A stretch of DNA of 50,259 nucleotides from Candidatus Parcubacteria bacterium (GTDB lineage Bacteria > Patescibacteriota > Minisyncoccia > Phycocordibacterales > Phycocordibacteraceae): assembly GCA_034666125.1 (NCBI GenBank), contig JAXDML010000010.1, forward strand, positions 1-50,259, written 5' to 3'. Of the stretch, positions 956 through 50,115 are shown one piece after another (within the stretch, counting starts at the first letter, position 1; the number at the start of each line of letters is the position of its first letter). The notes beneath the pieces were generated by a model. That model was given only the letters and a program-made list of their open reading frames with translations, had not been told where the DNA came from and searched no databases. A program made the position numbers and the translations under genes.

Positions 956-1412
956 CCATATACGTGTTAACAGCAGCCCAAAACCACGTACTACGGAGCG
1001 GATAGGTCGCAAGGCCTTTGCATGCGAATGCGCCGCCCCGGAAGGGGTGTTTTTAATTCAGGGCTGCCGCGAACCACGTGCACCTTGAAAACTGAATACG
1101 TAAGGTAATCAACGAGCTTCTACGAAAGTAGGAGTGAAATTGATATTGCAATCACAGAAAATTAAGTTAAGTGGTATTCAGGTTTCCGCACTGGAAACTG
1201 AAGGGTGCACGGTGGATGCCTTGGCTTATGCATGCGATGAAGGACGTGACTAATCTGCGAAATGCTTCGGGGAGGCGATATGTAGCCTGCGATCCGGAGG
1301 TGTCCGAATGGGGAAACCCGGCCAGTAATGGTCATCTTGCCCGTATGTGGCAAGAAGCGAACCTGGGGAAGTGAAACATCTCAGTACCCTGAGGAATAGA
1401 AAGCAATAGAGT

Positions 1413-1456
1413 GTTGCCTTCCGTCTGTTCGATCACTCGAACGGATGGAAGGCAAC
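1413..1456 (+). other. Hairpin insertion (expansion/IVS-like) in 23S domain I
   Basis: 20-bp stem GTTGCCTTCCGTCTGTTCGA-TCAC-TCGAACGGATGGAAGGCAAC inserted between the conserved AAAGCAA and GCGATTCCC blocks. Confidence 0.7.
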
Positions 1457-1461
1457 TCCCG

Positions 1462-1493
<32 letters not shown>

Positions 1494-1730
1494 GAAGCCC
1501 AAACCTCTTTCTTCGGAAAGGGGGGTTGTAAGGTAGGAGCTCCGTACTTGTACGGCAAGAGTTACAAAGGATGTCTATAGCGGAAGTTGCTGGGAAGCAA
1601 CGCCACAGAGGGTAATGGCCCCGTACGCGAAATACACATCTCTCTTGTGCTCCTATTCTTGAGTAGTTCGAGACACGAATAGCTCGAATGAATCTGCCGG
1701 AACTAACCGGTAAGGCTAAATAATGCATAG

Positions 1731-1776
<46 letters not shown>

Positions 1777-2459
1777 GAGAGGGGAGTGAAATAGAACTGA
1801 AACCGTGTACTTACAAAGGGTTAAGGGGGGCGTTCGCGTCCTTCTTAGCGTGCCTATTGAAGAATGAGCCTGCGAGTGTATGTATGTTGCCCATGGCTAA
1901 GTCCGTTACGGGACGGAGCCGCAGGGAAACCGAGTGTGAATAGCGCGTTAGTAGCATACATACGACCCGAAGCCAAGTGAGCTTGCCATGGGCAGGTTGA
2001 AGTGTGTCGAAAGACACATGGAGGACCGAACCCGTAGATCGTACAACGTCTTGGGATGACCTGTGGCAAGGAGTGAAAAGCTAATCGAACTTGGTAATAG
2101 CTGGTTCTCTCCGAAACAGCTTTTGGGCTGGCGTCGTGTGATCCCTCCGGGGGTAGAGCACTGGAAGGGACAAATAGGGGGAAACCTCGTTGTTCCTATC
2201 AAACTCCGAATACCGAGAGGTTACAGCACGGCAGTTAGACGGTGGGGGCGAAGCTCCACTCGTCGAAGGGGGAAGAGCCCTAGATCGCCAGTTAAGGTCC
2301 CTAAATTAACGCTCAGTACAACTTAAGGAAGTGAGGATCCTTTGACAATGAGGATGTTGGCTTAGAAGCAGCCACCATTTAAAGAAAGCGTAACAGCTCA
2401 CTCATCGAGGGTCCTTGCGCCGAAGATAATCGGGGTTAAGCGTTATACCGAAACTGCGG

Positions 2460-2517
2460 GCTTGCATATTGCATGGTGCGCGCGATTTATTTCGTGTGCA
2501 CCATGCAGTGTGCAAGC
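2460..2517 (+). other. Long hairpin at 23S helix 45 (IVS-like)
   Basis: About 26-bp stem GCTTGCATATTGCATGGTGCGCGCGA / TCGTGTGCACCATGCAGTGTGCAAGC between CCGAAACTGCGG and GGTAGGAGAGCG. Confidence 0.7.
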
Positions 2518-3248
2518 GGTAGGAGAGCGTTCGCATCCGCGATGAAGCCAAAGGGGTGACCCATGGTGGAGCGTTGCGAAGTGAGAATGCAGGCACAAGT
2601 AACCACAATGCGGGTGAGAACCCCGCACGTCGAAAGAACAAGGTTTCCTCAGCTATGATGATCAACTGAGGGTTAGTCGGGCCTAAGGGGATGGCGAAAG
2701 CCGCACCCGATGGACACATGGTTAATATTCCATGACCGATCATGTATGCGATGGAGTGACGGATTGTTGTACCTGCTGCCCATTATTGGATTTGGGTCCG
2801 TGAGTGAGAAGGTCTTCTAGGCAAATCCGGAAGACATTAACTTCGAGCAGAGCGGCAATGTTCTCCCACGGGGGAGCAGAGAGCAGGGAGCACGGTTCCA
2901 AGAAAAACTTCTAAGCTTCAGTACATGACGACCGTACCGGAAACCGACACAGGTGTTCAGGTCGAGTAGACTAAGACGAACGAGTGAGAGGTCCTCAAGG
3001 AACTCGGCAAAAAAGCGGCCGTAAGTTAGCGATAAGGCCTGCCCCCAGCAATGGGGGCCGCAGCGAAAGATTTTCTGCCAACTGTTTACCAAAAACACAG
3101 CTCCCTGCGAACTCGTAAGAGGATGTATAGGGGGTGACGCCTGACCAATGCCGGAAGGTCAAGCACGGAAGGTGATATGTCTTCGGACGTGTTGCTGGAT
3201 CGTATAAGCCCCGGTGAATGTCGGCGATAACTATAATCGTCCTAAGGT

Positions 3249-3443
3249 TCCGTATCTGAGCGATCGGGTACGGAACGGATTGGGACGATTATAGGAGACC
3301 GTAAACAGTTCTGAGAAGATTGCGTCATAAATAGCTACCTCTTTCGACCGAAAGGTTGATTGAATCCGCGACTCAAATGAGAGGCCATACGTCGCGCCCC
3401 TAGCAATAGGGTGAAGATATGGTCCTACTGTGAGGAATAGTAG
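3249..3443 (+). ncRNA. Group I-type intron at 23S position 1931 (E. coli numbering), 195 nt, ORF-less
   Basis: Interrupts CCTAAGGT^AGCGTAATTCC; 5' exon ends in U and intron ends in G; P7 GAGGCCA/TGGTCC, J8/7 GAAGATA, and P3, P8, P9 are recognisable. Confidence 0.85.
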
Positions 3444-4104
3444 AGCGTAATTCCTTGTCTGGTAAGTTCAGACGTGCACGAATGGCGTAATGAGTGGAAA
3501 ACTGTCTCGAGGACTCGCTCGGTGAAAATGCAATACCGGTGAAGATGCCGGTTACCCGTAGTTAGACGAAAAGACCCCAGGAGCTTTACTACAGCTTGAT
3601 ATTGGGGCTGTGTGATTCATGCGTAGCATAGGTGGGAGGCTTTGAAGCAGATCTTTCGGGGTTTGTGGAGCCGCCAGTGAAATACCACTCTTGAATTGTG
3701 CAGTCTCTAACCCGGTTAAGAACTAATCGGGAACAGTGTCTGGCAGGTAGTTTTAGTGGGGCGCTATCCTCCTAAAAAGTAACGGAGGAGTCTATTAAGG
3801 TCCGCTAGGCGCGAATGGAAACCGTGCCGATAGTGTAATGGCATAAGCGGGCTTAACTGCAAGGGGTACATCCCGCGCAGATGCGAAAGCAGAGCATAGT
3901 GAACCGATGGTCCGCCTTAGATGCGGCCAGAGATTAACGGATATAAGTTACCCTGGGGATAACAGGCTAGTTCCGCCCAAGCGTCCATAGCGACGGCGGA
4001 GTTCGGCACCTCGATGTCGGCTCACCTTAGCGCGGGGCTGGAGAAGGTCCCAAGCGTTTGGCTGTTCGCCAATTAAAAAGGTACGCGAGCTGGGTTCAAA
4101 CCGT

Positions 4105-4410
4105 GAGGGAATTGACTAGCAATAGTTGATTCTCTCACCGTTTGAATCCCTTCGAGATTTCTGTTGTCAGAACTTGAAAAAGTGCGAAGTGAATGTCTTT
4201 TCGTCTTGAAATTAAGATAGAACCAACCACGACACGGCGGTCATGCGCAGGAATGTGTATGAACAAACTGACTCATATCGGTAGAACCCTACTCATTGCG
4301 AGGGGCGATACCGAGGGAAACCGAAAGGTGCCCGTAGAGACTGAATGTCAGTCATCGAGAACCGATGAAGTTACAGTCCGATCCCCCGAGTAACCGGGGC
4401 AAACGAAATG
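4105..4410 (+). ncRNA. Group I intron at 23S position 2593, 306 nt, ORF-less
   Basis: Interrupts TTCAAACCGT^CGTGAGACAG; ends in G; P3 ACTGAC/GTCAGT, P4 TCGGTA/TACCGA, P6, P7 GAGACTG/CAGTCC, P8 and P9 present. Confidence 0.92.
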
Positions 4411-4787
4411 CGTGAGACAGGTTGGTCTCCTATCTACTACGGGCGTTGATTCTTGATGAGTGTTGCCCCTAGTACGAGAGGACCGGGGTGAACTGACCTC
4501 TGGTCTACCAGCTGTTGTGCCAACAGCACCGCTGGGTAGCTATGTCGGGACGGGATAACTGCTGAAAGCATATAAGCGGGAAGCCCACTCAAAGATTAGG
4601 AATCGTTATGAGACACCTAGCAGACTACTAGGTTGATAGGCTCTAGATGTACGCACAGCAATGTGTTCAGTCGAGGAGTACTAATATGTCCAATGTTCCC
4701 AGTGCGGAATTCTGTATGTCACTGACTTAAGATAGTGTTTGCATATACCTTACGTATTCAATTTTCCGGAAATAAACGCGCCCGGAA

Positions 4788-4897
4788 CGCTGGTGATTCA
4801 TCGGAGGGGCCATACCCGTTCCCATTCCGAACACGGCAGTCAAGCCCTCTTGAGCCGATGGTACTCCGAAAGGGGGAGAGTAGGTTGTCGCCAGCGT
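4788..4897 (+). rRNA. rrf: 5S rRNA (ends approximate)
   Basis: CCCGTTCCCATTCCGAACACGG and GAGAGTAGG...GCCAG motifs; helix I CTGGTG/CGCCAG. Confidence 0.95.
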
Positions 4898-16152: not shown

Positions 16153-17611
16153 CTTAATGAGAGTTTGATCCTAGCTCAGGATGAATGCTGGCTGTATGGA
16201 TAAGGCATGCAAGTCGAACGGACCGCAAGGTCAGTGGCAGACGAGGTAGTAACACGTACGAACGTACTCCCAAGTCGGGCATAGCCAACCGAAAGGTTGG
16301 GTAATTCCCGATAGTCCCTACGGGGTAAAGATTTATCGCTTGGGAAGCGGCGTGCGTAGTATCAGCTTGTTGGTAAGGTAACGGCTTACCAAGGCTACGA
16401 CGCTTAGGGGAGCTGAGAGGCTGACCCCCACCGATGGGACTGAGACACGGCCCATACTCCTACGGGAGGCCGCAGTCGAGAATCTTCCGCAATGGACGAA
16501 AGTCTGACGGAGCGATACAGCGTGGTGGATGAAGTGCTTCGGTACGTAAACACCTTTTATGTGGGACGAAATTATTGACGGTACCACATGAATAAGGGGC
16601 TCCTAACTCTGTGCCAGCAGGAGCGGTAATACAGAGGCCCCAAGCATTATCCGGAATCACTGGGCGTAAAGGGTGTCAAGGCGGTCATGTTAGTCGTTCG
16701 TAAAATCCGTGGGCTCAACCTACGGCTCGCGAGCGAAACGGCATGACTAGAGGTCGGGAGAGGTGCGTGGAACTCACGGTGTAGGGGTGAAATCCGTTGA
16801 TATCGTGGGGAACACCAAAGGCGAAGGCAGCGCACTGGTCCGAATCTGACGCTCACACACGAAAGCCAGGGTAGCGAATGGGATTAGATACCCCAGTAGT
16901 CCTGGCCCTAAACGTTGCTCGCTCGCTTTACGGAGTATCGACCCTCTGTGAGGCTAAGCTAACGCGGTAAGCGAGCCGCCTGGGTAGTACGAGCGCAAGC
17001 TTAAAACTCAAAGGAATAGACGGGGACTCGCACAAGTGGTGGATCATGTGGCTTAATTCGTAGCTAAGCGAAGAACCTTACCAGGGCTAGAAACCAAGCT
17101 GCACGCCTCCAGAAACGGAGGAAGCCTTCGAGGGTGCTTGGCAGGTGATGCATGGTTGTCGTCAGTTCGTGGCTTGAGCTGTTCCCTTCAGTGGGGTAAC
17201 GAACGCAACCCCCGTTGTCTGTTACTTATGTCAGGCGAGACTGCTCCCTCACGGGAGAGGAAGGTGGGGATGACGCCAAATCAGCATGTCCCTTGATGCC
17301 CTGGGCTGCACACGTGATACAATGGCCGGTACAGAAGGACGCAATACCGCAAGGTGGAGCAAATCCCAAAAACCTGCCCCAGTACGGATTGAGGTCTGCA
17401 ACCGACCTCATGAAGCCGGAATCACTAGTAATCGTAGGTCAGCCATACTACGGTGAATACGTTCTCGAGTCTTGTACTCACCGCCCGTCAACTCAAGGAA
17501 GTTGGAAGCGCCCGACATCTTGTCCAGTACAGGACTACGGCGAGTTCAATGACAGGGAGTAAGTCGTAACAAGGCACGGCTAGCGGAAGCTGGTCGTGGA
17601 ACATATCCAAT
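16153..17611 (+). rRNA. rrs: 16S rRNA (no intron seen; ends approximate)
   Basis: AGAGTTTGATCCTAGCTCAG, GGATTAGATACCC, AAACTCAAAGGAATAGACGG, AAGTCGTAACAAGG. Confidence 0.98.
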
Positions 17612-18153: not shown

Positions 18154-18229
18154 GCACGCTTAGCTCAGTTGGTAGAGCACTCGACTGATACTCGAGCGGT
18201 CCTAGGTTCGAATCCTAGAGCGTGCACCA
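18154..18229 (+). tRNA. tRNA-Ile (GAU)
   Basis: 76-nt cloverleaf; acceptor GCACGCT/AGCGTGC; anticodon arm CTCGA-CTGATAC-TCGAG; TTCGAAT T-loop; encoded CCA. Confidence 0.96.
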
Positions 18230-42654: not shown

Positions 42655-44829
42655 ATGTATACCAAGACGATCGCCCGCTGGGCCGTACTCACACCTCTTT
42701 TTCTCATTCCGTTCCTCGCGCTTTTCGTATCGGGGGATCTTTTCTTCCCGTTCATCACGGGTAAGAACTTCCTATTCCGGGCGCTCGTGGAGATCGCGCT
42801 CGCCGGATACGCCGTACTCGCCTTTGCCGACCGCCGATACCGCCCGCAGTTCTCCTGGGTGCTCGCGTCCTTCGCGCTCCTGGTCGCATGGACGCTTGTC
42901 GCCGATCTGTTCTCCATCAATCCGCATAAGGCCATCTGGAGCAACTTCGAGCGTATGGACGGGTGGATCACGCTCATCCACGTCTTCGCGCTCTTCCTCG
43001 TGGCGGGACCCGTACTCTCGATCGACCGGCTTTGGCGGCACTGGTGGATGACCCTCGTGGGCGTTTCCTCGCTCGTGACCCTGCACGCGATCATGCAGTT
43101 CTTCTGCGTCGGCAATGCCTGCGGTGCGACGGGCCGTTTCTTCGCGGTGCATCAGAGCGCCACGCGTCTTGACGCCACACTCGGTAACTCCGAGTACCTC
43201 GCCGGCTTCCTCCTCCTGGCTATCGGCATCACCCTCTGGCAGGCCTTTGCGACGAAGGGGAAGGGGTTGCGCGCCTCCCTGTTCGTCCTCGTCGCGCTGC
43301 AGGTACTCGTGCTCTTCGGCACCGGCACGCGCGGCACGTTCGTCGCGCTCATCGCCGCTGCGTTTGTAGGGGGCTTGCTCTGGCTCCTTGAAATGGGGAA
43401 GCGTGGCCGCAAGGGAGCGCTCGTCTTCCTCGCCGCCGTCATCGTTCTCGCCGCAGGGTTCTATGCCGTGCGAAACACGGCGTTCGTGCAGCAGAGCCCG
43501 AATCTTTCGCGCTTCGCGACGATCTCGCTCGGCTCCCTCGACACGCGTGTCGCGATCTGGGGCATGGCGGTCGAAGGCGCCAAAGAGCGGCCGCTCATGG
43601 GCTGGGGCCACGAGGGGTTCAACTACGTTTTCAACAGGCATTACGAGCCGTCCTTATACGGCCAGGAGCAATGGTTCGACCGGGCGCACGACGTGTACCT
43701 CGATTGGCTCATCACGGGCGGCGTACCGGCGCTCCTCCTGTTCCTTCTGCTCGGCGGGAGCGCGATCCTCGCCGTGCATCGGTCCCGGGAACTCAAGGCC
43801 TGGGAGCGCGTGCTGATCCTCTCGGTGTTCGCCGGATACGCCATACAAGGACTGGCCGTCTTCGACAACCTCTTTACCTACATACCGATAGGGATGCTGC
43901 TGGCGTACGCGCACACGCTCCGTTCCCGGCCGATTCCGGCGCTCGAGCGCGTCCGGGAGGTACGCGGAACCGCGCTCGATGCCGTTACGGTGCCCGTCGC
44001 GGTCGTTATCGCGCTCCTGGTCCTGTATATGGTCAACATACCGACCTATGCCGCCGGGACGGAACTCATCAACGGCCTGAGGTCCGGAGGCACGGTGGAG
44101 TCGCGCACGGGATACTTCAAGAGCGCGCTTGCGCGGAACCCGTTCGCAACGCAGGAGATCCGTGAGCAACTACTGGTATTCGCGGGGCAGGTAGTCGGAA
44201 GCGACGTGCCCGCGCCCGCGAAGTCGGCGGCGTTCGCTCTCGCTTCCTCCGAGATAGAAAAGGAGATCGCGCGCGCTCCGCAAGACGCGCGCCTGTACGT
44301 GCAGTACTCCTTCTTCCTACGCGCGGCCGGCCAGTTCGATATGGCCCGCGAGACGGCCGCGAAGGCCCGCTCGCTCTCGCCCCTGAAGCAGAGCATCATC
44401 GTCGAGCAGGGAATCGTCGAATGGCAGGCGGACAAGCCCGAGGCCGCCGCGGCCTTCTTTGAGGAAGCGTATGCGCTCGCGACCACGTCCGACGAGCTTG
44501 CCGCATATGCCGCCGCTGGCCATATTATTTCCGGGGATATCCCGGGCGGGAAAGCCGTACTCCAGGACCGTTTCGGGACCACGACGGTCAATAACATAGT
44601 CCTCGCGCTGGCGTACCAGAGAGCAAACGCCTGGAACGACGTCATCGTGATCCTCTCGGAACGGTATGCGCAGCAGGAGGACGCGACGACCGGCTACCAG
44701 CTCGCCATCGCGTACGTGCGCGCGGGGCGTTTGGACGAGGCGCGCACGCTCGCACGCGCGGTGATGCAGGCGCATCCCGAGACATCGTCGCAAGGCGCGT
44801 CGCTCCTCATGCAGCTCGGCGTGCGATAG
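42655..44829 (+). CDS. O-antigen ligase-like (Wzy_C) membrane protein with C-terminal TPR repeats
   Basis: TLGN, TGTRG, R..IW, PLMGWG, DRAHD motifs; helical TPR-like C-terminus. Confidence 0.85.
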   Translation: MYTKTIARWAVLTPLFLIPFLALFVSGDLFFPFITGKNFLFRALVEIALAGYAVLAFADRRYRPQFSWVLASFALLVAWTLVADLFSINPHKAIWSNFERMDGWITLIHVFALFLVAGPVLSIDRLWRHWWMTLVGVSSLVTLHAIMQFFCVGNACGATGRFFAVHQSATRLDATLGNSEYLAGFLLLAIGITLWQAFATKGKGLRASLFVLVALQVLVLFGTGTRGTFVALIAAAFVGGLLWLLEMGKRGRKGALVFLAAVIVLAAGFYAVRNTAFVQQSPNLSRFATISLGSLDTRVAIWGMAVEGAKERPLMGWGHEGFNYVFNRHYEPSLYGQEQWFDRAHDVYLDWLITGGVPALLLFLLLGGSAILAVHRSRELKAWERVLILSVFAGYAIQGLAVFDNLFTYIPIGMLLAYAHTLRSRPIPALERVREVRGTALDAVTVPVAVVIALLVLYMVNIPTYAAGTELINGLRSGGTVESRTGYFKSALARNPFATQEIREQLLVFAGQVVGSDVPAPAKSAAFALASSEIEKEIARAPQDARLYVQYSFFLRAAGQFDMARETAAKARSLSPLKQSIIVEQGIVEWQADKPEAAAAFFEEAYALATTSDELAAYAAAGHIISGDIPGGKAVLQDRFGTTTVNNIVLALAYQRANAWNDVIVILSERYAQQEDATTGYQLAIAYVRAGRLDEARTLARAVMQAHPETSSQGASLLMQLGVR

Positions 44830-44844
44830 CGAACGCGTAAAGCG

Positions 44845-44882
44845 AAAACAAAAGCGGCGTCGCATGACGCCGCTTTTGTTTT
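44845..44882 (+). terminator. Intrinsic terminator
   Basis: AAAACAAAAGCGGCGTC-GCAT-GACGCCGCTTTTGTTTT. Confidence 0.8.
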
Positions 44883-44916
44883 ACGCACGCACGCAAACGT
44901 TTTTGCGTAAATAAAG

Positions 44917-44925
44917 TTATCCACA
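44917..44925 (+). promoter_or_regulatory. Consensus DnaA box
   Basis: TTATCCACA in an AT-rich intergenic region; degenerate TTCTGCACA at 44937-44945. Confidence 0.55.
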
Positions 44926-45078
44926 CCTCGTGCTTTTTCTGCACAAAAATTTCACCAACGCGCAATAATGTATGCAGAACACATTCGTTCGCGAATCAGT
45001 TTCCGTAATGCGCATTGTTGGAACTGATTCGCGTGCGAGTGGGTCGACATTAGCACTCTAACTTCACCTAACGGACTT

Positions 45079-45264
45079 ATGGCAGCAAAAAGGAAGGCAG
45101 CTAAGCGCCCGGCAAAGAAGGCAGCTAAGCGCCCGGCAAAGAAGGCAGCCGCTAAGCGCCCAGCTAAGCGCCGCGCCGCTAAGCGCCCGGCAGCTAAGAA
45201 GGCAGCGAAGAAATCCGCAGCGAAGCGCCCAGCAAAGCGCCGCGCAGCGAAGAAGCGCCGCTAA
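45079..45264 (+). CDS. Histone H1-like (Hc2/AlgP-type) Lys/Ala/Arg-rich protein
   Basis: 61 aa of AAKRPAKK repeats; tandem 24-nt DNA unit AAGGCAGCTAAGCGCCCGGCAAAG; followed by a terminator. Confidence 0.8.
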   Translation: MAAKRKAAKRPAKKAAKRPAKKAAAKRPAKRRAAKRPAAKKAAKKSAAKRPAKRRAAKKRR

Positions 45265-45275
45265 GCGACTCACGC

Positions 45276-45309
45276 AAAAGGAAGGCCCCCGCGAGGGGGT
45301 TTTTCTTTT
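45276..45309 (+). terminator. Intrinsic terminator
   Basis: AAAAGGAAGGCCCCC-GCGA-GGGGGTTTTTCTTTT. Confidence 0.8.
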
Positions 45310-45319
45310 GGTTCCGCAT

Positions 45320-45348
45320 TTGCCATCTGAAGCACGACGCGGTATATT
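45320..45348 (+). promoter_or_regulatory. Sigma70 promoter
   Basis: TTGCCA, 17-nt spacer, TATATT. Confidence 0.7.
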
Positions 45349-45357
45349 TTGAGGGCA

Positions 45358-45444
45358 ATGAAAAGGACTGGCAACGCAACGTATTTTGCTTGGCATAAAT
45401 CAACCCGAAGAGGGCTGATTTGTGCTTCGGTAGACGTTTCCTAA
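45358..45444 (+). CDS. Putative 28-aa leader peptide MKRTGNATYFAWHKSTRRGLICASVDVS
   Basis: ATG 9 nt after the -10 box, TAA at 45442-45444, lies upstream of a terminator; below the ORF-track size limit. Confidence 0.5.
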   Translation: MKRTGNATYFAWHKSTRRGLICASVDVS

Positions 45445-45469
45445 ACTCCACGCATCGTCTCCGGATTAC

Positions 45470-45504
45470 ACACCAGCCCCTTTACGGGGCTGGTGTTCTT
45501 TTTG
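45470..45504 (+). terminator. Premature intrinsic terminator (attenuator) in the 5' leader
   Basis: ACACCAGCCCC-TTTAC-GGGGCTGGTGT-TCTTTTT between the promoter and the gene at 45538. Confidence 0.8.
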
Positions 45505-45537
45505 CCTTGAGAAACCGATAGAGAGAAGGAGAGTCCG

Positions 45538-46503
45538 ATGTATCTTACTTCGCACGATTCCCTACAACGAGCGCTCGAAGCTCGTATCCGGGACAAAGGC
45601 GCAGTCCAGGAAGGCATACGGCGATTCCTTAAGCGCGAGTATGGTATTGATCAGCCTCTTGAGATCATCCCGCCATATGTCAGACGCGATCGTCCGGTAG
45701 CTGTGCTGGCGCGTCAGATCGCTTCCGCCTGCATTGAGGATATCGCCTTCAACCTGGGGGCGAAGCGGCTCGGTCTCACGCCGCTGACGGCAACGTTCGT
45801 AAGAGATGCCTTCGACGCGAGGAATCATGACAAATACCACCGTGTGCGTATTCCCTGGATCGAGTACTCGAGAAGTAATGTCCGATCCATAAAGCACGAG
45901 CAGATCTCACGCGAGAACGTCCCGGATCTTACAGCCATACCGCTCGAGCATATCCGTTGCCTAGACGGGAAGAAATTGCCCGCCCATCACCGAGATTTGC
46001 GCGCGGCGACAAGGCTTTCAGGCCTCCTTACCGATGTCTCCGGCATGCATGTGGCGATGCTCAAAAGCGCCGACCGGAAGCCGACGCATGTGTATCGGAG
46101 CACAAGACAAGGACATGCGGAGAAGCGTCTACCCCTTGAAAAGGGTTTCGAACTGGCGGACTACGACCGTCCCCCGGCATCGTGGTACTACCCCTACTAC
46201 CTGTCCTGGTTCGTGGACGGGTCGGCAGTGCTTTTCGAGACCTACGACAATCCGATTGCCCAAGTCTCGGAAGCGAAAAGGCTTTTCGAGGCATGCCTTC
46301 TGAAGGTAACGGAAGGAACTGGCTTCACGCCGCTTATCGTGAAGATACCGCCTCTCAGCAACGATATGCTGTGGTGCAATCGGCATCTGCTTTGGGATAA
46401 CGACGGCATACCGTCGCTCGAGCAGGAGGCGGAGCGACTCTGCATGCGTGATACCGTCACGTTCTTCAGAGCTATTGCAGAGTCGGCAATCGGCTATCAC
46501 TAA
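45538..46503 (+). CDS. Hypothetical soluble protein (321 aa), function unknown
   Basis: Long ORF with globular composition (LARQIAS, DAFDARNHDK, WYYPYYL, LFETY, GFTPLIV); followed by a hairpin at 46515-46553. Confidence 0.75.
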   Translation: MYLTSHDSLQRALEARIRDKGAVQEGIRRFLKREYGIDQPLEIIPPYVRRDRPVAVLARQIASACIEDIAFNLGAKRLGLTPLTATFVRDAFDARNHDKYHRVRIPWIEYSRSNVRSIKHEQISRENVPDLTAIPLEHIRCLDGKKLPAHHRDLRAATRLSGLLTDVSGMHVAMLKSADRKPTHVYRSTRQGHAEKRLPLEKGFELADYDRPPASWYYPYYLSWFVDGSAVLFETYDNPIAQVSEAKRLFEACLLKVTEGTGFTPLIVKIPPLSNDMLWCNRHLLWDNDGIPSLEQEAERLCMRDTVTFFRAIAESAIGYH

Positions 46504-46597
46504 CGGTGCGATTGGTTCGCTCCGGCCCCTCGTATGGGACCGGAGCGAACTTTCTGTCGGGCGCTTAAGGCATACTACTTAGAAGTAACGAACGTAT

Positions 46598-47563
46598 ATG
46601 AAAAAAATGAACATCGTGCGAGCACTTACCGAGTTTGGTGAACGACAAGGGCAGGCCACGATACGGGCGGGAGAGTATATTGAAAACCTTCTTATTACGG
46701 GAGGGGTGATCACATATGGGAAGGAGTTTATTGAGGTCGAGCTGCCTCATGCTTCAGCGACGCTTCGCGCAGATACTAAAGAAATTAAGTGCGCCCCCAC
46801 CTCATTCATTGGTGGAAAGATCAATGACAAGGACGCGCTAGTAAGCTCACTCGTTCCCTCTCGTTATCTGCTTACGGTTCCAAACATAAACTTCAATCCG
46901 CGCTCCGACTCGCTGTCGCGCCCGAATTTTTATTTCGCGCCCGCCCTTGCCGTCAGAAAGAAAGACATGCCGCGCATCCTCACGGCCCAAAAGGTTGAGG
47001 GAACAGTGTACGTTCGAAAAATGCGGCACCGGCTAATCCAATTTCTGATAGGTAATCGGAAAAGTCCCGAAGTCGTACTTTTCGCGCATTACGATTCGAT
47101 TGGGCCAGGCGCGATGGATAACGCCTCAGGTACTGCTGTATGCATCTCGATTGCGCTCAAGCATCCGGAGGTTCTTTCGAAAGTACTCATCGTCCTTGAT
47201 CCGAACGAAGAGCTTTCCTACGACAGCCCAACATACTGGGGACATGGCTATCGTGTGTTTGAAAAAAGGCACCCACTCCTGTTGCGTAATGCCAAGCGCG
47301 TCATTGTCGTTGATTCGGTCGGGAATGGGAAACCGCAGATCTTTCGGGATTCTCACACCCTTAATCTCGCTTTTCCGCTGAAAGCCGTTGCCCGCCTTCG
47401 AGGGGACGTGCTAACGGTTGGAGGAGACGTGGAGGGAATGATGGAGTTCTATCAGAGCGATACAGACGTGCCGAGCCAATTGACCGAGGGTTTTCTTGAG
47501 GAGACCGAGGAACTTGTCCTGAAACTCGTCTTATCCGGTTACGGTAGAAGAAATACGCGATAA
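46598..47563 (+). CDS. M28 family metallopeptidase-like protein
   Basis: AHYDS, GAMDNASG, NEE, VDSVG. Confidence 0.8.
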   Translation: MKKMNIVRALTEFGERQGQATIRAGEYIENLLITGGVITYGKEFIEVELPHASATLRADTKEIKCAPTSFIGGKINDKDALVSSLVPSRYLLTVPNINFNPRSDSLSRPNFYFAPALAVRKKDMPRILTAQKVEGTVYVRKMRHRLIQFLIGNRKSPEVVLFAHYDSIGPGAMDNASGTAVCISIALKHPEVLSKVLIVLDPNEELSYDSPTYWGHGYRVFEKRHPLLLRNAKRVIVVDSVGNGKPQIFRDSHTLNLAFPLKAVARLRGDVLTVGGDVEGMMEFYQSDTDVPSQLTEGFLEETEELVLKLVLSGYGRRNTR

Positions 47564-47583
47564 AAGGTATAGTGGGCGGGTCT

Positions 47584-50115
47584 ATGGCCAGTCTATTGAG
47601 CCGTTTCTTCACCCAAAACCAGTCCGCAAGCTTCCTCAAGGGAGCGGCGGGCGTCGTCTCCCGTGCAGGTCAGATCGAGCCCGAGCTCACTGACGCGTCA
47701 CAGGAAGACCTGCGTGCGCGACTTATTGGGGTCCGGGAGCGCATGAACGTTGCGACTCCGTCCGAGGACGATATCGCCGAGGTGTTCGCGCTCGTGCGCG
47801 AAGCTGCACGGCGCACGCTTAACGAGCGGCATTACGACGTACAGCTTATGGGGGGTCTCGCGCTGGCACGCGGGAAGATCGCCGAGATGCGCACCGGGGA
47901 AGGAAAAACGCTCGTTGCGACCCTGCCCGCGACGCTGTGGGCGCTTGCCGGCAAGGGCATGCACATCGTGACCGTGAATGATTATCTCGCACGACGCGAC
48001 GCGGCATGGATGGGGCAGGTGTACGACTTCCTCGGCCTTACCATCGGGGTCGTGACGAGCGCGGGGAGCTACGTGTACGACGCGTCGCACGTGCCGAAGG
48101 ACGAGGATGAGGAGCGCGACGAGGAAGGTTCCTTCCGCATTTTCTACGATTACCTCCGTCCGGCACCGAAGCAGGAGGCGTACGCGGCCGATATCACGTT
48201 CGCGACCAACAACGAGCTCGGCTTCGACTACCTGCGCGACAATACGGCGTACGAGGCCGGACAGATCGTCCAGCGCGGCCACCATTACGCCATCGTGGAC
48301 GAGATCGACTCGATCCTTATCGACGAGGCGCGTACCCCGCTCATTATTTCCGGGCCGGTCCCGGAAAGCGAGCAGTTCTACGAGCGCTTCGCGATGATCG
48401 CGCGCACGATGGAGGAAGGAACCGACTATACGATCGACGAGAAGCAGCGCGCCATCCAGCTCACCGACGACGGCATCACCAAGGCTGAAAAGGCTCTGAA
48501 CATCGAGAACCTCTATACCGAAGGCGGGGTGAAGCTCGCGCATCATCTCGAGACGGCAGTGCGGGCGAAGGCGCTCTTCAATAAGGACAAGGAGTACGTG
48601 GTGCGCGACAACCAGATCGTCATCGTGGACGAGTTCACGGGGCGCCTGCAGCCCGGCCGTCGCTGGTCGGAAGGCCTCCACCAGGCCATCGAGGCGAAGG
48701 AAGGCGTCGATATCCAGAAGGAGACCCGCACGTACGCGTCGATCACGTTCCAGAACCTCTTCCGCATGTATGAAGGGCTCGCCGGCATGACGGGTACCGG
48801 TCTTTCCTCAGAGGAGGAATTCTATACGGTCTACAGGCTCGAGGTGATCGTGGTGCCGACGAATAAGCCGGTCGCGCGCATCGATCACGATGACCTTATC
48901 TTCCAGAACAACCACGGCAAGTATACGGCGCTTACGCGCGCGGTGAAGGAACTCCACGAGAAGGGGCAGCCGGTACTCGTGGGTACGGTATCCATCGAGG
49001 ACAACGAGATCGTGAGCACGTATTTCAGCGACGCAGGCGTCCCGCACGAGGTCCTGAACGCGAAGAACCACGAACGCGAGGGCGAACTCATCGCGCAGGC
49101 GGGAGAGAAGGGACGCGTCACGGTAGCGACGAACCTCGCAGGCCGCGGCGTGGACATCAAGCTCGGCGGCGCGACCGCCGAGCCCGCAGCGCGGGAAGAG
49201 GTCCGGCAGCTCGGCGGGCTCGCGGTCGTCGGTACCGAACGGCACGAGGCGCGGCGCATCGACAACCAGCTGCGCGGACGTTCCGGCCGCCAGGGCGACC
49301 CGGGCGCGACCCAGTTCTACGTATCTCTCGAGGACAAGCTCATGCGCGTCTTCGCGAGCGACATGCTGAAGAAGGTGATGGGCTCGTTCAAGATCCCGGA
49401 GGACGAGCCGATCGGGAGCCCGATGATCAGCCGGTCGCTTGAGACCGCGCAGAAGCGCATCGAGGGATTCAACTTCGACTCGCGCAAGCAGGTGCTCGCG
49501 TACGACGACGTCCTGAATACCCAACGGCTCGCCGTCTACGAACGCCGGAACCTCGCGCTTACGGGCTCCGACGAGGAACTCCGGACGGCGATAGAGGAGA
49601 TCATTCTGGGCGACGAGGCCGCGTCCGAGGCGCTTACGGCCCGGGGAGCGGAATTTGGAGAGGCCGTCTGGAACCGGCTCCTCCGGCGCCTTATCCTCCA
49701 GGTGACGGACGCTTTCTGGCTGGAGCATCTCGATACCATGGAATACCTCCGCCGCTCGGTGTCGCTGCGCGCATACGGGCAGCGCGATCCGCTCCAGGAA
49801 TACCGCAAGGAAGGCCTTCGCCGTTTCCAGGACATGCTCGATGGCATCGAGGAGCAGATACGCCAGGCGCTGCCGCACCTGCGGCCCGCCGACGACACGC
49901 GTACCCGCGCGGAGGAAGCGAAGACACGCGCACGGCTCGTCGCAGCAAGCGAAGAATCCGACGAGTCGACAACGCAAGGACCGATCGTGAAGACCGGTAC
50001 GACGCATGGTCGCAACGACCTCGTGACCATACGCAAGGGCGAGGAAACCCAGACGCTCAAGTATAAGAAAGCCGAACCGCTTCTTGCGGAAGGGTGGGTC
50101 GTCGAACGCACATAA
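47584..50115 (+). CDS. secA: Protein translocase ATPase SecA
   Basis: MRTGEGKT, VTVNDYLARRDA, DEIDSILIDEARTPLIISG, ATNLAGRGVDI, QLRGRSGRQGDPG. Confidence 0.98.
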   Translation: MASLLSRFFTQNQSASFLKGAAGVVSRAGQIEPELTDASQEDLRARLIGVRERMNVATPSEDDIAEVFALVREAARRTLNERHYDVQLMGGLALARGKIAEMRTGEGKTLVATLPATLWALAGKGMHIVTVNDYLARRDAAWMGQVYDFLGLTIGVVTSAGSYVYDASHVPKDEDEERDEEGSFRIFYDYLRPAPKQEAYAADITFATNNELGFDYLRDNTAYEAGQIVQRGHHYAIVDEIDSILIDEARTPLIISGPVPESEQFYERFAMIARTMEEGTDYTIDEKQRAIQLTDDGITKAEKALNIENLYTEGGVKLAHHLETAVRAKALFNKDKEYVVRDNQIVIVDEFTGRLQPGRRWSEGLHQAIEAKEGVDIQKETRTYASITFQNLFRMYEGLAGMTGTGLSSEEEFYTVYRLEVIVVPTNKPVARIDHDDLIFQNNHGKYTALTRAVKELHEKGQPVLVGTVSIEDNEIVSTYFSDAGVPHEVLNAKNHEREGELIAQAGEKGRVTVATNLAGRGVDIKLGGATAEPAAREEVRQLGGLAVVGTERHEARRIDNQLRGRSGRQGDPGATQFYVSLEDKLMRVFASDMLKKVMGSFKIPEDEPIGSPMISRSLETAQKRIEGFNFDSRKQVLAYDDVLNTQRLAVYERRNLALTGSDEELRTAIEEIILGDEAASEALTARGAEFGEAVWNRLLRRLILQVTDAFWLEHLDTMEYLRRSVSLRAYGQRDPLQEYRKEGLRRFQDMLDGIEEQIRQALPHLRPADDTRTRAEEAKTRARLVAASEESDESTTQGPIVKTGTTHGRNDLVTIRKGEETQTLKYKKAEPLLAEGWVVERT

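Follow-up and report, generated by a model that had tools for sequence, protein, structure and literature searches.

A putative leaderless leader-peptide attenuator upstream of a conserved two-gene operon in Patescibacteria

Transcription attenuation by a translated leader peptide is the most probable function of an RNA leader that we describe here from Candidatus Parcubacteria bacterium. The sequence analysed, hereafter the window, is the whole 50,259-nucleotide (nt) stretch from position 1 to 50,259 of contig JAXDML010000010.1 (GenBank assembly GCA_034666125.1), and the leader lies directly upstream of two genes that we call gene A (45538-46503) and gene B (46598-47563). We put at about 0.7 the probability that the leader controls gene A and gene B, and possibly also secA in this genome, by ribosome-mediated transcription attenuation; all of the evidence is computational. 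The leader has the hallmarks of an attenuator, namely a short open reading frame (ORF) at the 5' end, regulatory codons placed within it, an intrinsic terminator with no later promoter, and an antiterminator that excludes the terminator. These elements, their conservation in related loci, the enrichment of Trp codons both in frame and in position, and the covariation of the antiterminator were computed directly. A preliminary description of the region had already read it as an attenuator, and this reading is supported by the layout found in 17 of 19 loci, by the Trp enrichment, by the covarying antiterminator and by the lack of a separate promoter for the downstream genes.

Layout and conservation of the leader

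All features of the leader and the operon lie on the + strand of the window. A sigma-70-type promoter is located at 45320-45348, with a -35 box at 45320-45325, a spacer of 17 nt and a -10 box at 45343-45348, and it matches the consensus at 10 of 12 positions. The ATG of the upstream open reading frame (uORF, 45358-45444) is found at 45358, and the frame runs for 28 codons to the stop codon at 45442-45444, its last residue being Ser. The codons for Tyr-Phe-Ala-Trp-His (45382-45396) form the proposed stall site; the single Trp codon (45391-45393) is codon 12 of 28 and lies 16 codons before the stop. Both the promoter and the uORF with its aromatic cluster had been placed correctly in the preliminary description, to which we add one correction concerning the start. 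Because the ATG is only 9 nt past the -10 box and usable Shine-Dalgarno spacing is absent, the uORF mRNA is probably leaderless or near-leaderless.

From the Trp codon onward, the RNA can adopt alternative structures. Segment 1 (45393-45406) is the 5' arm of the 1:2 hairpin, the putative anti-antiterminator; as first described, it pairs with 45412-45425 in the minimum free energy (MFE) fold, and this hairpin alone has a free energy of -17.3 kcal/mol. Segment 2 (45412-45430) has segment 1 and segment 3 (45461-45480) as alternative partners, the latter giving the antiterminator. The 2:3 pairing joins 45412-45430 with 45461-45479 and is longer than the six pairs noticed at first: it consists of 15 pairs in three helices (45412-45417/45474-45479, 45421-45424/45467-45470 and 45426-45430/45461-45465) stacked on a central hairpin (45432-45460), which caps the antiterminator stem, includes the uORF stop codon and was present in all folds run. 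In a constrained fold, the antiterminator hairpin spanning 45409-45482 reaches -26.7 kcal/mol. The 3' half of segment 3 (45470-45480) is also the 5' arm of the intrinsic terminator (45470-45503), a stem-loop at 45470-45496 with 11 pairs (8 of them G-C) and a loop of 5 nt, followed by a T-run to 45503. Its stability of -22.5 kcal/mol confirms the strong terminator that had been claimed. The 151-nt leader as a whole folds with z = -5.49, and none of 200 shuffled sequences folded equally well.

Only 34 nt (45504-45537) separate the T-run from the ATG of gene A. The preliminary description had named a promoter of the gene's own past the terminator as the observation that would speak against attenuation; a promoter scan of these 34 nt detected no promoter-like site, and there is no room for one. 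Thus, gene A is expected to depend on read-through of the terminator.

We examined whether the uORF and the terminator are conserved upstream of homologues, as had been proposed. A profile built from 25 gene A homologues led to 19 loci in species-representative genomes. In 17 of them, a uORF followed by a hairpin and a T-run is found directly upstream of the gene A homologue, with uORFs of 17-41 codons at the same place. The upstream sequence of locus L006 is cut at 73 nt, so that only the terminator is visible, and the leader element is absent upstream of the gene A homologue of L019. Six loci (L009, L010, L012, L015, L016 and L018) carry two leader units in tandem, at about 3500-3995 in each. 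Together with the window, the related loci provide 24 leader units, which we grouped by eye into 16 groups; the terminator coordinates were set or corrected by hand in 5 of the 24. The open frame reaches at least to segment 2 in every one of these units. Between groups, segment 2 and the terminator are wholly different in sequence but remain complementary to each other.

This complementarity was assessed by comparing the terminator 5' arm plus 8 nt with the upstream leader, against 300 dinucleotide shuffles, a unit passing when at most 5 shuffles gave an equally good duplex. By this measure 18 of the 24 units passed. For the window, the duplex energy was -18.3 kcal/mol as compared with -11.3 +/- 2.3 kcal/mol for the shuffles, of which 1 in 300 was as good. 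Furthermore, the window antiterminator was mapped on a MAFFT alignment of the window with L003, L004, L005 and L014. On this five-locus alignment, 94.6% of cells were paired and 7 of the 15 pairs had changed on both sides, a result somewhat favoured by deriving the structure from one of the five rows; none of 500 shuffles reached this paired fraction or the covariation score, and controls in which the structure was slid along the alignment gave at most 56%. RNAalifold, applied to the same five loci, recovered the terminator and the middle helix, with double changes in 8 of 19 pairs. As judged from these alignments, the antiterminator pairing appears to be kept by compensatory changes.

The uORFs are rich in Trp codons. 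With a background Trp frequency of 0.99%, 6.0 Trp-holding uORFs would be expected among the 24 units and 21 were observed; when one unit per group was counted, the figures were 4.1 expected and 15 of 16 observed. Between the ATG and segment 2, the triplet TGG occurs 23 times in the uORF frame and 7 and 3 times in the other two frames (binomial P = 2e-5). The position of the Trp codons is also non-random. We defined, from RNA structure alone, a boundary as the ribosome position where the antiterminator is lost. In the 8 codons preceding this boundary Trp makes up 11.4% of residues, as compared with the 0.99% background, and it occurs within 10 codons before the boundary in 17 of the 23 units having one, a Cys cluster being found there in 2 more. 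By this criterion, a sharp boundary is absent from the window. Segment 2 begins 12-42 nt past the last preceding Trp codon (12-25 nt in most units), and its start is just out of reach of a ribosome decoding that codon. Among the units lacking Trp, the L008 uORF has Phe-rich codons instead. In L013 (3701-3811) and L017 (3673-3792), Trp is replaced by an in-frame cluster of Cys codons in an equivalent position with respect to the antiterminator strand, with TGY in frame in 3 of 3 and 4 of 5 cases, respectively.

Predicted leaderless translation and the proposed switch

In 14 first or sole units, including that of the window, a TTGAC[AGT] -35 box, a spacer of 16-18 nt and a -10 box are followed 5-9 nt further on by the uORF ATG, although in 3 of these 14 units the start was an in-frame ATG picked by eye. 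Because of this short distance, transcription probably starts at or beside the AUG. The ATG of L013 lies 13 nt past the -10 box and has a Shine-Dalgarno-like site, and that of L016a lies 12 nt past the -10 box; a clear promoter was not found in L004 and L008. We also considered the possibility that leaderless starts are widespread in this genome. Besides that of the leader, the window has a single strong promoter followed by a start codon at 5-9 nt, located at 964 and upstream of the 23S rRNA gene; since no general use of leaderless starts is visible in the window, this possibility was rejected.

To model the effect of ribosome position, a 30-nt footprint was held unpaired at each A-site codon. 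Folds of a transcript cut before the 3' arm of the terminator were used in place of an equilibrium occupancy model. In such transcripts, the terminator 5' arm remains paired with segment 2 for as long as the ribosome has not moved past the Trp or Cys cluster, and it is freed after an advance of 1-5 codons beyond the cluster. For the window, the constrained fold of the cut transcript gave the antiterminator when Trp or His was in the A site, and, without a ribosome or with one at the stop codon, the 1:2 hairpin formed and the terminator arm was unpaired with segment 2. In the cut transcript, the constrained folding suggested in the preliminary description thus gave the predicted alternation between the two structures.

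We infer from these results that the uORF is translated, that ribosomes stall at the Trp codon with ensuing read-through, and that the alternative structures compete kinetically. Transcription would begin at or a few bases from the uORF AUG, and a ribosome would load on the 5' end of the RNA once it emerges. A ribosome running through the uORF would first cover segment 2 and then leave it to re-pair with segment 1; with segment 3 free, the terminator (45470-45496) would form and a transcript of about 150 nt would end at the T-run near 45503. With the Trp codon or one of its aromatic or His neighbours in the decoding site, a stalled ribosome would instead cover segment 1 and leave segment 2 free. 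Segment 2 could then capture segment 3 before the 3' arm of the terminator exists, and RNA polymerase would read into gene A. The likeliest signal for the stall would be a shortage of charged tRNA-Trp, or of aromatic amino acids more broadly, and the leader would in this way sense the charging of Trp-tRNA. In L013 and L017 the run of Cys codons sits at the position of the proposed stall site, and tandem units would multiply the stringency of the switch.

Several results weigh against attenuation by a translated leader peptide. The length of the window uORF is not significant in G+C-rich sequence (P = 0.40 for 28 codons by chance), and none of the units is significant singly (P = 0.08-0.57), with a combined Fisher value of 0.011. 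Counts over units are not independent, because the units are related to one another. Six of the 24 units (L001, L009b, L011, L012b, L016a and L017) failed the duplex test. Three of the 24 uORFs (L008, L013 and L017) have no Trp, and the window uORF and most others have one Trp codon only; classical attenuators employ runs of regulatory codons. Translation of the second unit in tandem pairs is doubtful, since this unit lacks both a good promoter and a Shine-Dalgarno site. In the full-length equilibrium model, the terminator of the window has a probability of at least 0.9 at every ribosome position; clear dips in terminator probability near the Trp codon were seen in many relatives and none in the window. 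Since the terminator wins at equilibrium, the switch in the window must be kinetic, acting before the 3' arm is made. For the 1:2 hairpin, 70.5% of cells were paired on the five-locus alignment, a value equalled or exceeded by 173 of 500 shuffles. Moreover, 9 of the 24 units favour the antiterminator without a ribosome (the terminator 5' arm being paired with a probability above 0.8), and the three-structure geometry of the trp type is thus not general in the family; in those 9 units the translating ribosome, rather than a 1:2 hairpin, would destroy the antiterminator. The trp-style 1:2/2:3/3:4 geometry claimed at first therefore stands in part: it is present in the window, and the 2:3 pairing covaries, but the 1:2 hairpin, real as it is in the window, lacks covariation support and is unproven as a feature of the family.

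Other explanations of the leader can be considered. The uORF might respond to something other than the supply of Trp-tRNA, such as a small molecule to which a nascent-peptide arrest motif around Trp-His responds, a ribosome-targeting antibiotic, or general translation stress, with the output through terminator and antiterminator unchanged. Such a signal would suit the single Trp codon of most uORFs, the occurrence of His directly or one residue after Trp in about half of the units (counted by eye), and regulated genes other than those of Trp biosynthesis. However, the exchange of Trp for a Cys cluster in L013 and L017 fits the sensing of a scarce amino acid better than a single arrest peptide, and the peptide around Trp is poorly conserved, as L009b and L012b differ by 2 synonymous and 10 non-synonymous codon changes (4 and 1, respectively, between L009a and L012a). 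Furthermore, with a geometry like that of TnaC, where the stall occurs about 12 residues past the critical Trp, the ribosome would sit on segment 2, and termination rather than induction would be favoured. PMC12121999 reports uORFs responsive to several classes of ribosome-targeting antibiotics. We consider a signal other than the supply of Trp-tRNA unlikely here. An RNA-only switch, that is, a riboswitch or a protein- or tRNA-dependent antiterminator in which the open frame is incidental and untranslated, would account for the strongest evidence, because neither the covarying antiterminator nor the terminator needs translation. The non-significant ORF lengths and the second tandem units without promoter and Shine-Dalgarno site would agree with it, and the UGGCA string could be an RNA motif. 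Yet the ATG is at the predicted transcription start in 14 units, TGG favours one frame (23 versus 7 and 3), and the frame is open to at least segment 2 in all 24 units. The sequences also differ completely apart from their pairing logic, with no conserved multi-helix core resembling a ligand pocket, and no Rfam family, the T-box included, was matched in the window or in the 16 related loci scanned; a switch without translation seems quite improbable to us.

The product of the leader itself could be what matters. The uORF may encode a functional peptide, either a small protein or the precursor of a ribosomally synthesized and post-translationally modified peptide (RiPP) on which the gene A and gene B products act, and the terminator would then only set the ratio of peptide to enzyme; or the RNA of about 150 nt could act in trans as a small RNA (sRNA). 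A conserved peptide gene next to two conserved enzyme genes, one of them peptidase-like, and the conservation of the Trp would be in line with this, and a trans-acting attenuator RNA and leader peptide, rnTrpL and peTrpL of Sinorhizobium, are on record (PMC6614838, PMC7298713). The comparison of L016a with L018a argues otherwise. Their 5' parts are common up to Trp-Ala and are followed by three single-base insertions or deletions, which put the conserved 7-mer of segment 2 into a different reading frame in each; the constraint on the 3' half of the uORF is therefore one on RNA and not on peptide. The C-terminal halves are thus unconserved as peptide, the peptides share no common length, charge or hydrophobicity pattern, Cys-rich motifs stand in place of Trp in L013 and L017, and a separate terminator follows each tandem copy. 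Gene A, for its part, matches no known family of RiPP maturases. For the RiPP-like substrate, which had been offered as an alternative in the preliminary description, the differing frame of the 7-mer between close relatives is unfavourable, and the combination of RiPP precursor and maturase was rejected in view of the RNA-constrained 3' half of the uORF and of the lack of a Pfam or NCBIfam family for gene A. If the leader acted in trans, it would do so alongside attenuation and not instead of it. We regard a functional peptide or sRNA as a very improbable explanation of the leader.

The putatively regulated genes and their surroundings

Gene A (45538-46503), the first gene under the putative control of the attenuator, is preceded by a strong Shine-Dalgarno sequence and encodes a protein of 321 amino acids of an uncharacterised family. 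It has no match in Pfam or NCBIfam, in agreement with the "unknown gene" first noted downstream of the leader. The family comprises 566 cluster representatives at E <= 1e-3, 110 of them at E <= 1e-30, and a Pfam search with 20 distant members also found no family. Almost all relatives come from Patescibacteria-type metagenome genomes, the closest homologue (P0002) being 78% identical. The AlphaFold2 (AF2) model has a pLDDT of 91.8. Its best fold match in the PDB by Foldseek is class I LysRS, a weak match (E = 5e-3, TM 0.47), followed at lower scores by other class I synthetases and by MshC. A profile search of the PDB gave nothing below E = 0.2, and matches in the ESM Atlas (scores <=0.84, TM <=0.34) are leads only. 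Neither a HIGH nor a KMSKS motif was seen among the invariant columns of the alignment of gene A homologues.

Gene B (46598-47563), also of 321 amino acids, resembles M28-type metallopeptidases (Pfam Peptidase_M28, 2.4e-08; aminopeptidase YwaD, 6hc6, 6.1e-05). It is the conserved partner of gene A, being located directly 3' of it in 17 of the 19 loci; in L011 the contig ends first, and in L019 gene B is on the other strand. In the window, secA (47572-50115) is located 3' of gene B, and no promoter- or terminator-like site was found on the + strand at the junction of the two. Inclusion of secA in the conserved module was rejected, since a SecA match occurs beside gene A in none of the 19 loci.

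The G+C content of genes A and B (45538-47563) is 51-57%, as compared with 58-66% upstream and 60-68% in secA. The neighbours of the module change from locus to locus: ClpB in L009 and L012, DnaK and DnaJ in L015, HisRS in L003, and HIT in L016 and L018. L001 and L002 possess a third gene, overlapping and AstE/AspA-like (zinc deacylase family). Given the lower G+C content and the variable neighbourhood, the leader and the two genes may form a mobile cassette that is transferred as one unit. From two hydrolase-like partners and the type of regulation, one may guess at a role of the operon in the salvage of peptides or amino acids.

Some features between the terminator and gene A are worth recording. 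The spacer (45504-45537) holds the Shine-Dalgarno sequence of gene A and, preceding it within 45504-45533, a box of about 20 nt which is near-identical in the window and in the closest loci L001, L002 and L003. In the MFE fold of the window, the T-run of the terminator pairs with the purine-rich Shine-Dalgarno region of gene A; this predicted pairing may add translational control of gene A. L001 (~3893-3990) and L002 (~3885-3990) have two extra hairpins between the terminator and gene A that are not in the window; the loop of the first is common to both loci, and its stems differ yet are complementary. In L004, the terminator and gene A are separated by an extra ORF of 93 codons (3717-3998), which has its own Shine-Dalgarno sequence and belongs to no Pfam family.

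Upstream of the leader, a 61-codon Lys/Ala/Pro-rich repeat gene without a Pfam match (45079-45264) has its own terminator at ~45279-45306, and its product resembles histone H1 or a nucleoid protein. Elsewhere in the window, the genes for 23S rRNA (1189-4706) and 5S rRNA (4789-4896) are unlinked from those for 16S rRNA (16153-17611) and tRNA-Ile (18154-18229), which lie about 11 kb downstream. The 23S rRNA match spans 3518 nt on a model of 2925 positions, indicating an insertion of about 0.6 kb, and no ORF of at least 150 amino acids is found inside.

Comparison with known attenuators

At the Rfam gathering score, no leader family and no T-box was detected in the whole window or in 16 of the 19 loci (L017-L019 were outside the scan), in keeping with the first assessment of the element as unannotated. 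At E <= 10, the region 44800-45700 gave only weak, terminator-type matches within 45320-45540. The sole match to a leader-peptide family, Phe_leader at 44800-44882 (19.6 bits versus a cutoff of 55), is outside the element, as is L20_leader (19.1 bits versus 58.7); rnk_leader (18.5 bits versus 50) overlaps it. No tRNA or tmRNA was found in the element region, and 6S RNA and signal recognition particle (SRP) RNA, considered on account of transcript size, were rejected in view of the multi-branched fold and the lack of an Rfam match. On the - strand, 44831-44915 weakly matches a Brucella sRNA (27.4 bits versus a cutoff of 114); it resembles a bidirectional terminator hairpin after the Wzy/TPR gene and not a member of that family.

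Attenuation is well known as a kind of regulation; the apparent novelty lies in the present family itself, the phylum that hosts it, the operon it targets, the swap of Trp for Cys and the tandem form. In the full-text literature outside subscription journals, judged on titles and the beginnings of abstracts, no comparable element was found for Patescibacteria, the candidate phyla radiation (CPR) or Saccharibacteria. To our knowledge, almost nothing is known of gene regulation in Patescibacteria/CPR, most of which are known from metagenomes only. These bacteria are generally described as relying on other cells for amino acids. It is tempting, if speculative, to suppose that they carry a mobile, self-contained starvation switch, in which a leaderless ORF reads the charging of Trp tRNA (of Cys tRNA in some lineages), these amino acids being the scarcest, and activates a Rossmann-like enzyme and a peptide-recycling M28-type peptidase, often with two sensors in series; we hold this broader picture to be possible at best. 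If true, it would be the first circuit described for episymbionts that senses the amino-acid supply of the host, and it would give a physiological role to an unannotated protein family of 566 cluster representatives. The switch can be read from sequence and recurs across many lineages. The attenuator points to a probable role of the gene A-gene B operon in responding to stress of translation or amino-acid supply, and it hints at when the unannotated family of gene A is expressed. In metatranscriptomes, one would expect abundant terminated leaders of about 150 nt, and full-length mRNA only under starvation.

Leader peptides with aromatic codons are known to control non-biosynthetic genes of translation, as in the attenuators of the auxiliary TrpRS of Streptomyces and of E. 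coli pheST (pheM). They are of interest here because the model of gene A weakly resembles the core of a class I aminoacyl-tRNA synthetase; however, gene A has no Pfam synthetase domain and neither HIGH nor KMSKS, and we do not claim homology of the leaders. In TnaC, free Trp is the signal, the stall takes place at the last codons and Rho is blocked, the critical Trp being about 12 residues before the C-terminal stall. It is similar to the present element in that a short leader peptide with a critical Trp governs downstream transcription termination. In contrast, the terminator described here is intrinsic, the Trp of the window uORF lies 16 codons before the stop, and a stall far past Trp would promote termination by covering segment 2. 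An arrest peptide of the TnaC type was rejected as a candidate for the window: Trp is at codon 12 of 28, the peptide ends in Ser, and the terminator is intrinsic rather than Rho-dependent.

The E. coli trp attenuator, as its mechanism is summarised in PMC4007540, is similar in having a short leader ORF with Trp regulatory codons, 1:2, 2:3 and 3:4 pairings, and an intrinsic terminator before the first structural gene, and in that a stalled ribosome favours the antiterminator. The two have no sequence or Rfam relationship, and they differ in the number of Trp codons (one here, two in E. coli), in the start of the leader ORF (leaderless here, Shine-Dalgarno-led there), and in the 1:2 element, which is not conserved family-wide here. 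Furthermore, the targets here are a Rossmann-like protein of an uncharacterised family and an M28-like peptidase, not biosynthesis genes.

Closer in their mode of initiation are the leaders of Deinococcus deserti, for which 14 leaderless leader peptides, predicted to act in transcription attenuation, are reported (PMC4007540). According to that report, these transcripts likewise begin directly at an AUG, that of a short ORF in which one amino acid is abundant, and a longer mRNA leader follows the ORF; the genes controlled there are those for tRNA synthetases and amino-acid biosynthesis, the phylum is another one, and no sequence relationship is to be expected. In mycobacteria, leaderless polycysteine short ORFs form a Cys 'ribulon', in which pausing of ribosomes at codons for the scarce amino acid is described as altering the expression of the downstream operon (10.1101/834739). 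These are also leaderless sensory ORFs, and the uORFs of L013 and L017 with their Cys clusters look to be of this type, although the control described in mycobacteria is translational and does not involve an intrinsic terminator. As described in these two sources, leaderless sensory uORFs have so far come from Deinococcus and Actinobacteria (PMC4007540; 10.1101/834739); the leader of the gene A-gene B operon would extend both such uORFs and serial tandem attenuators to another phylum.

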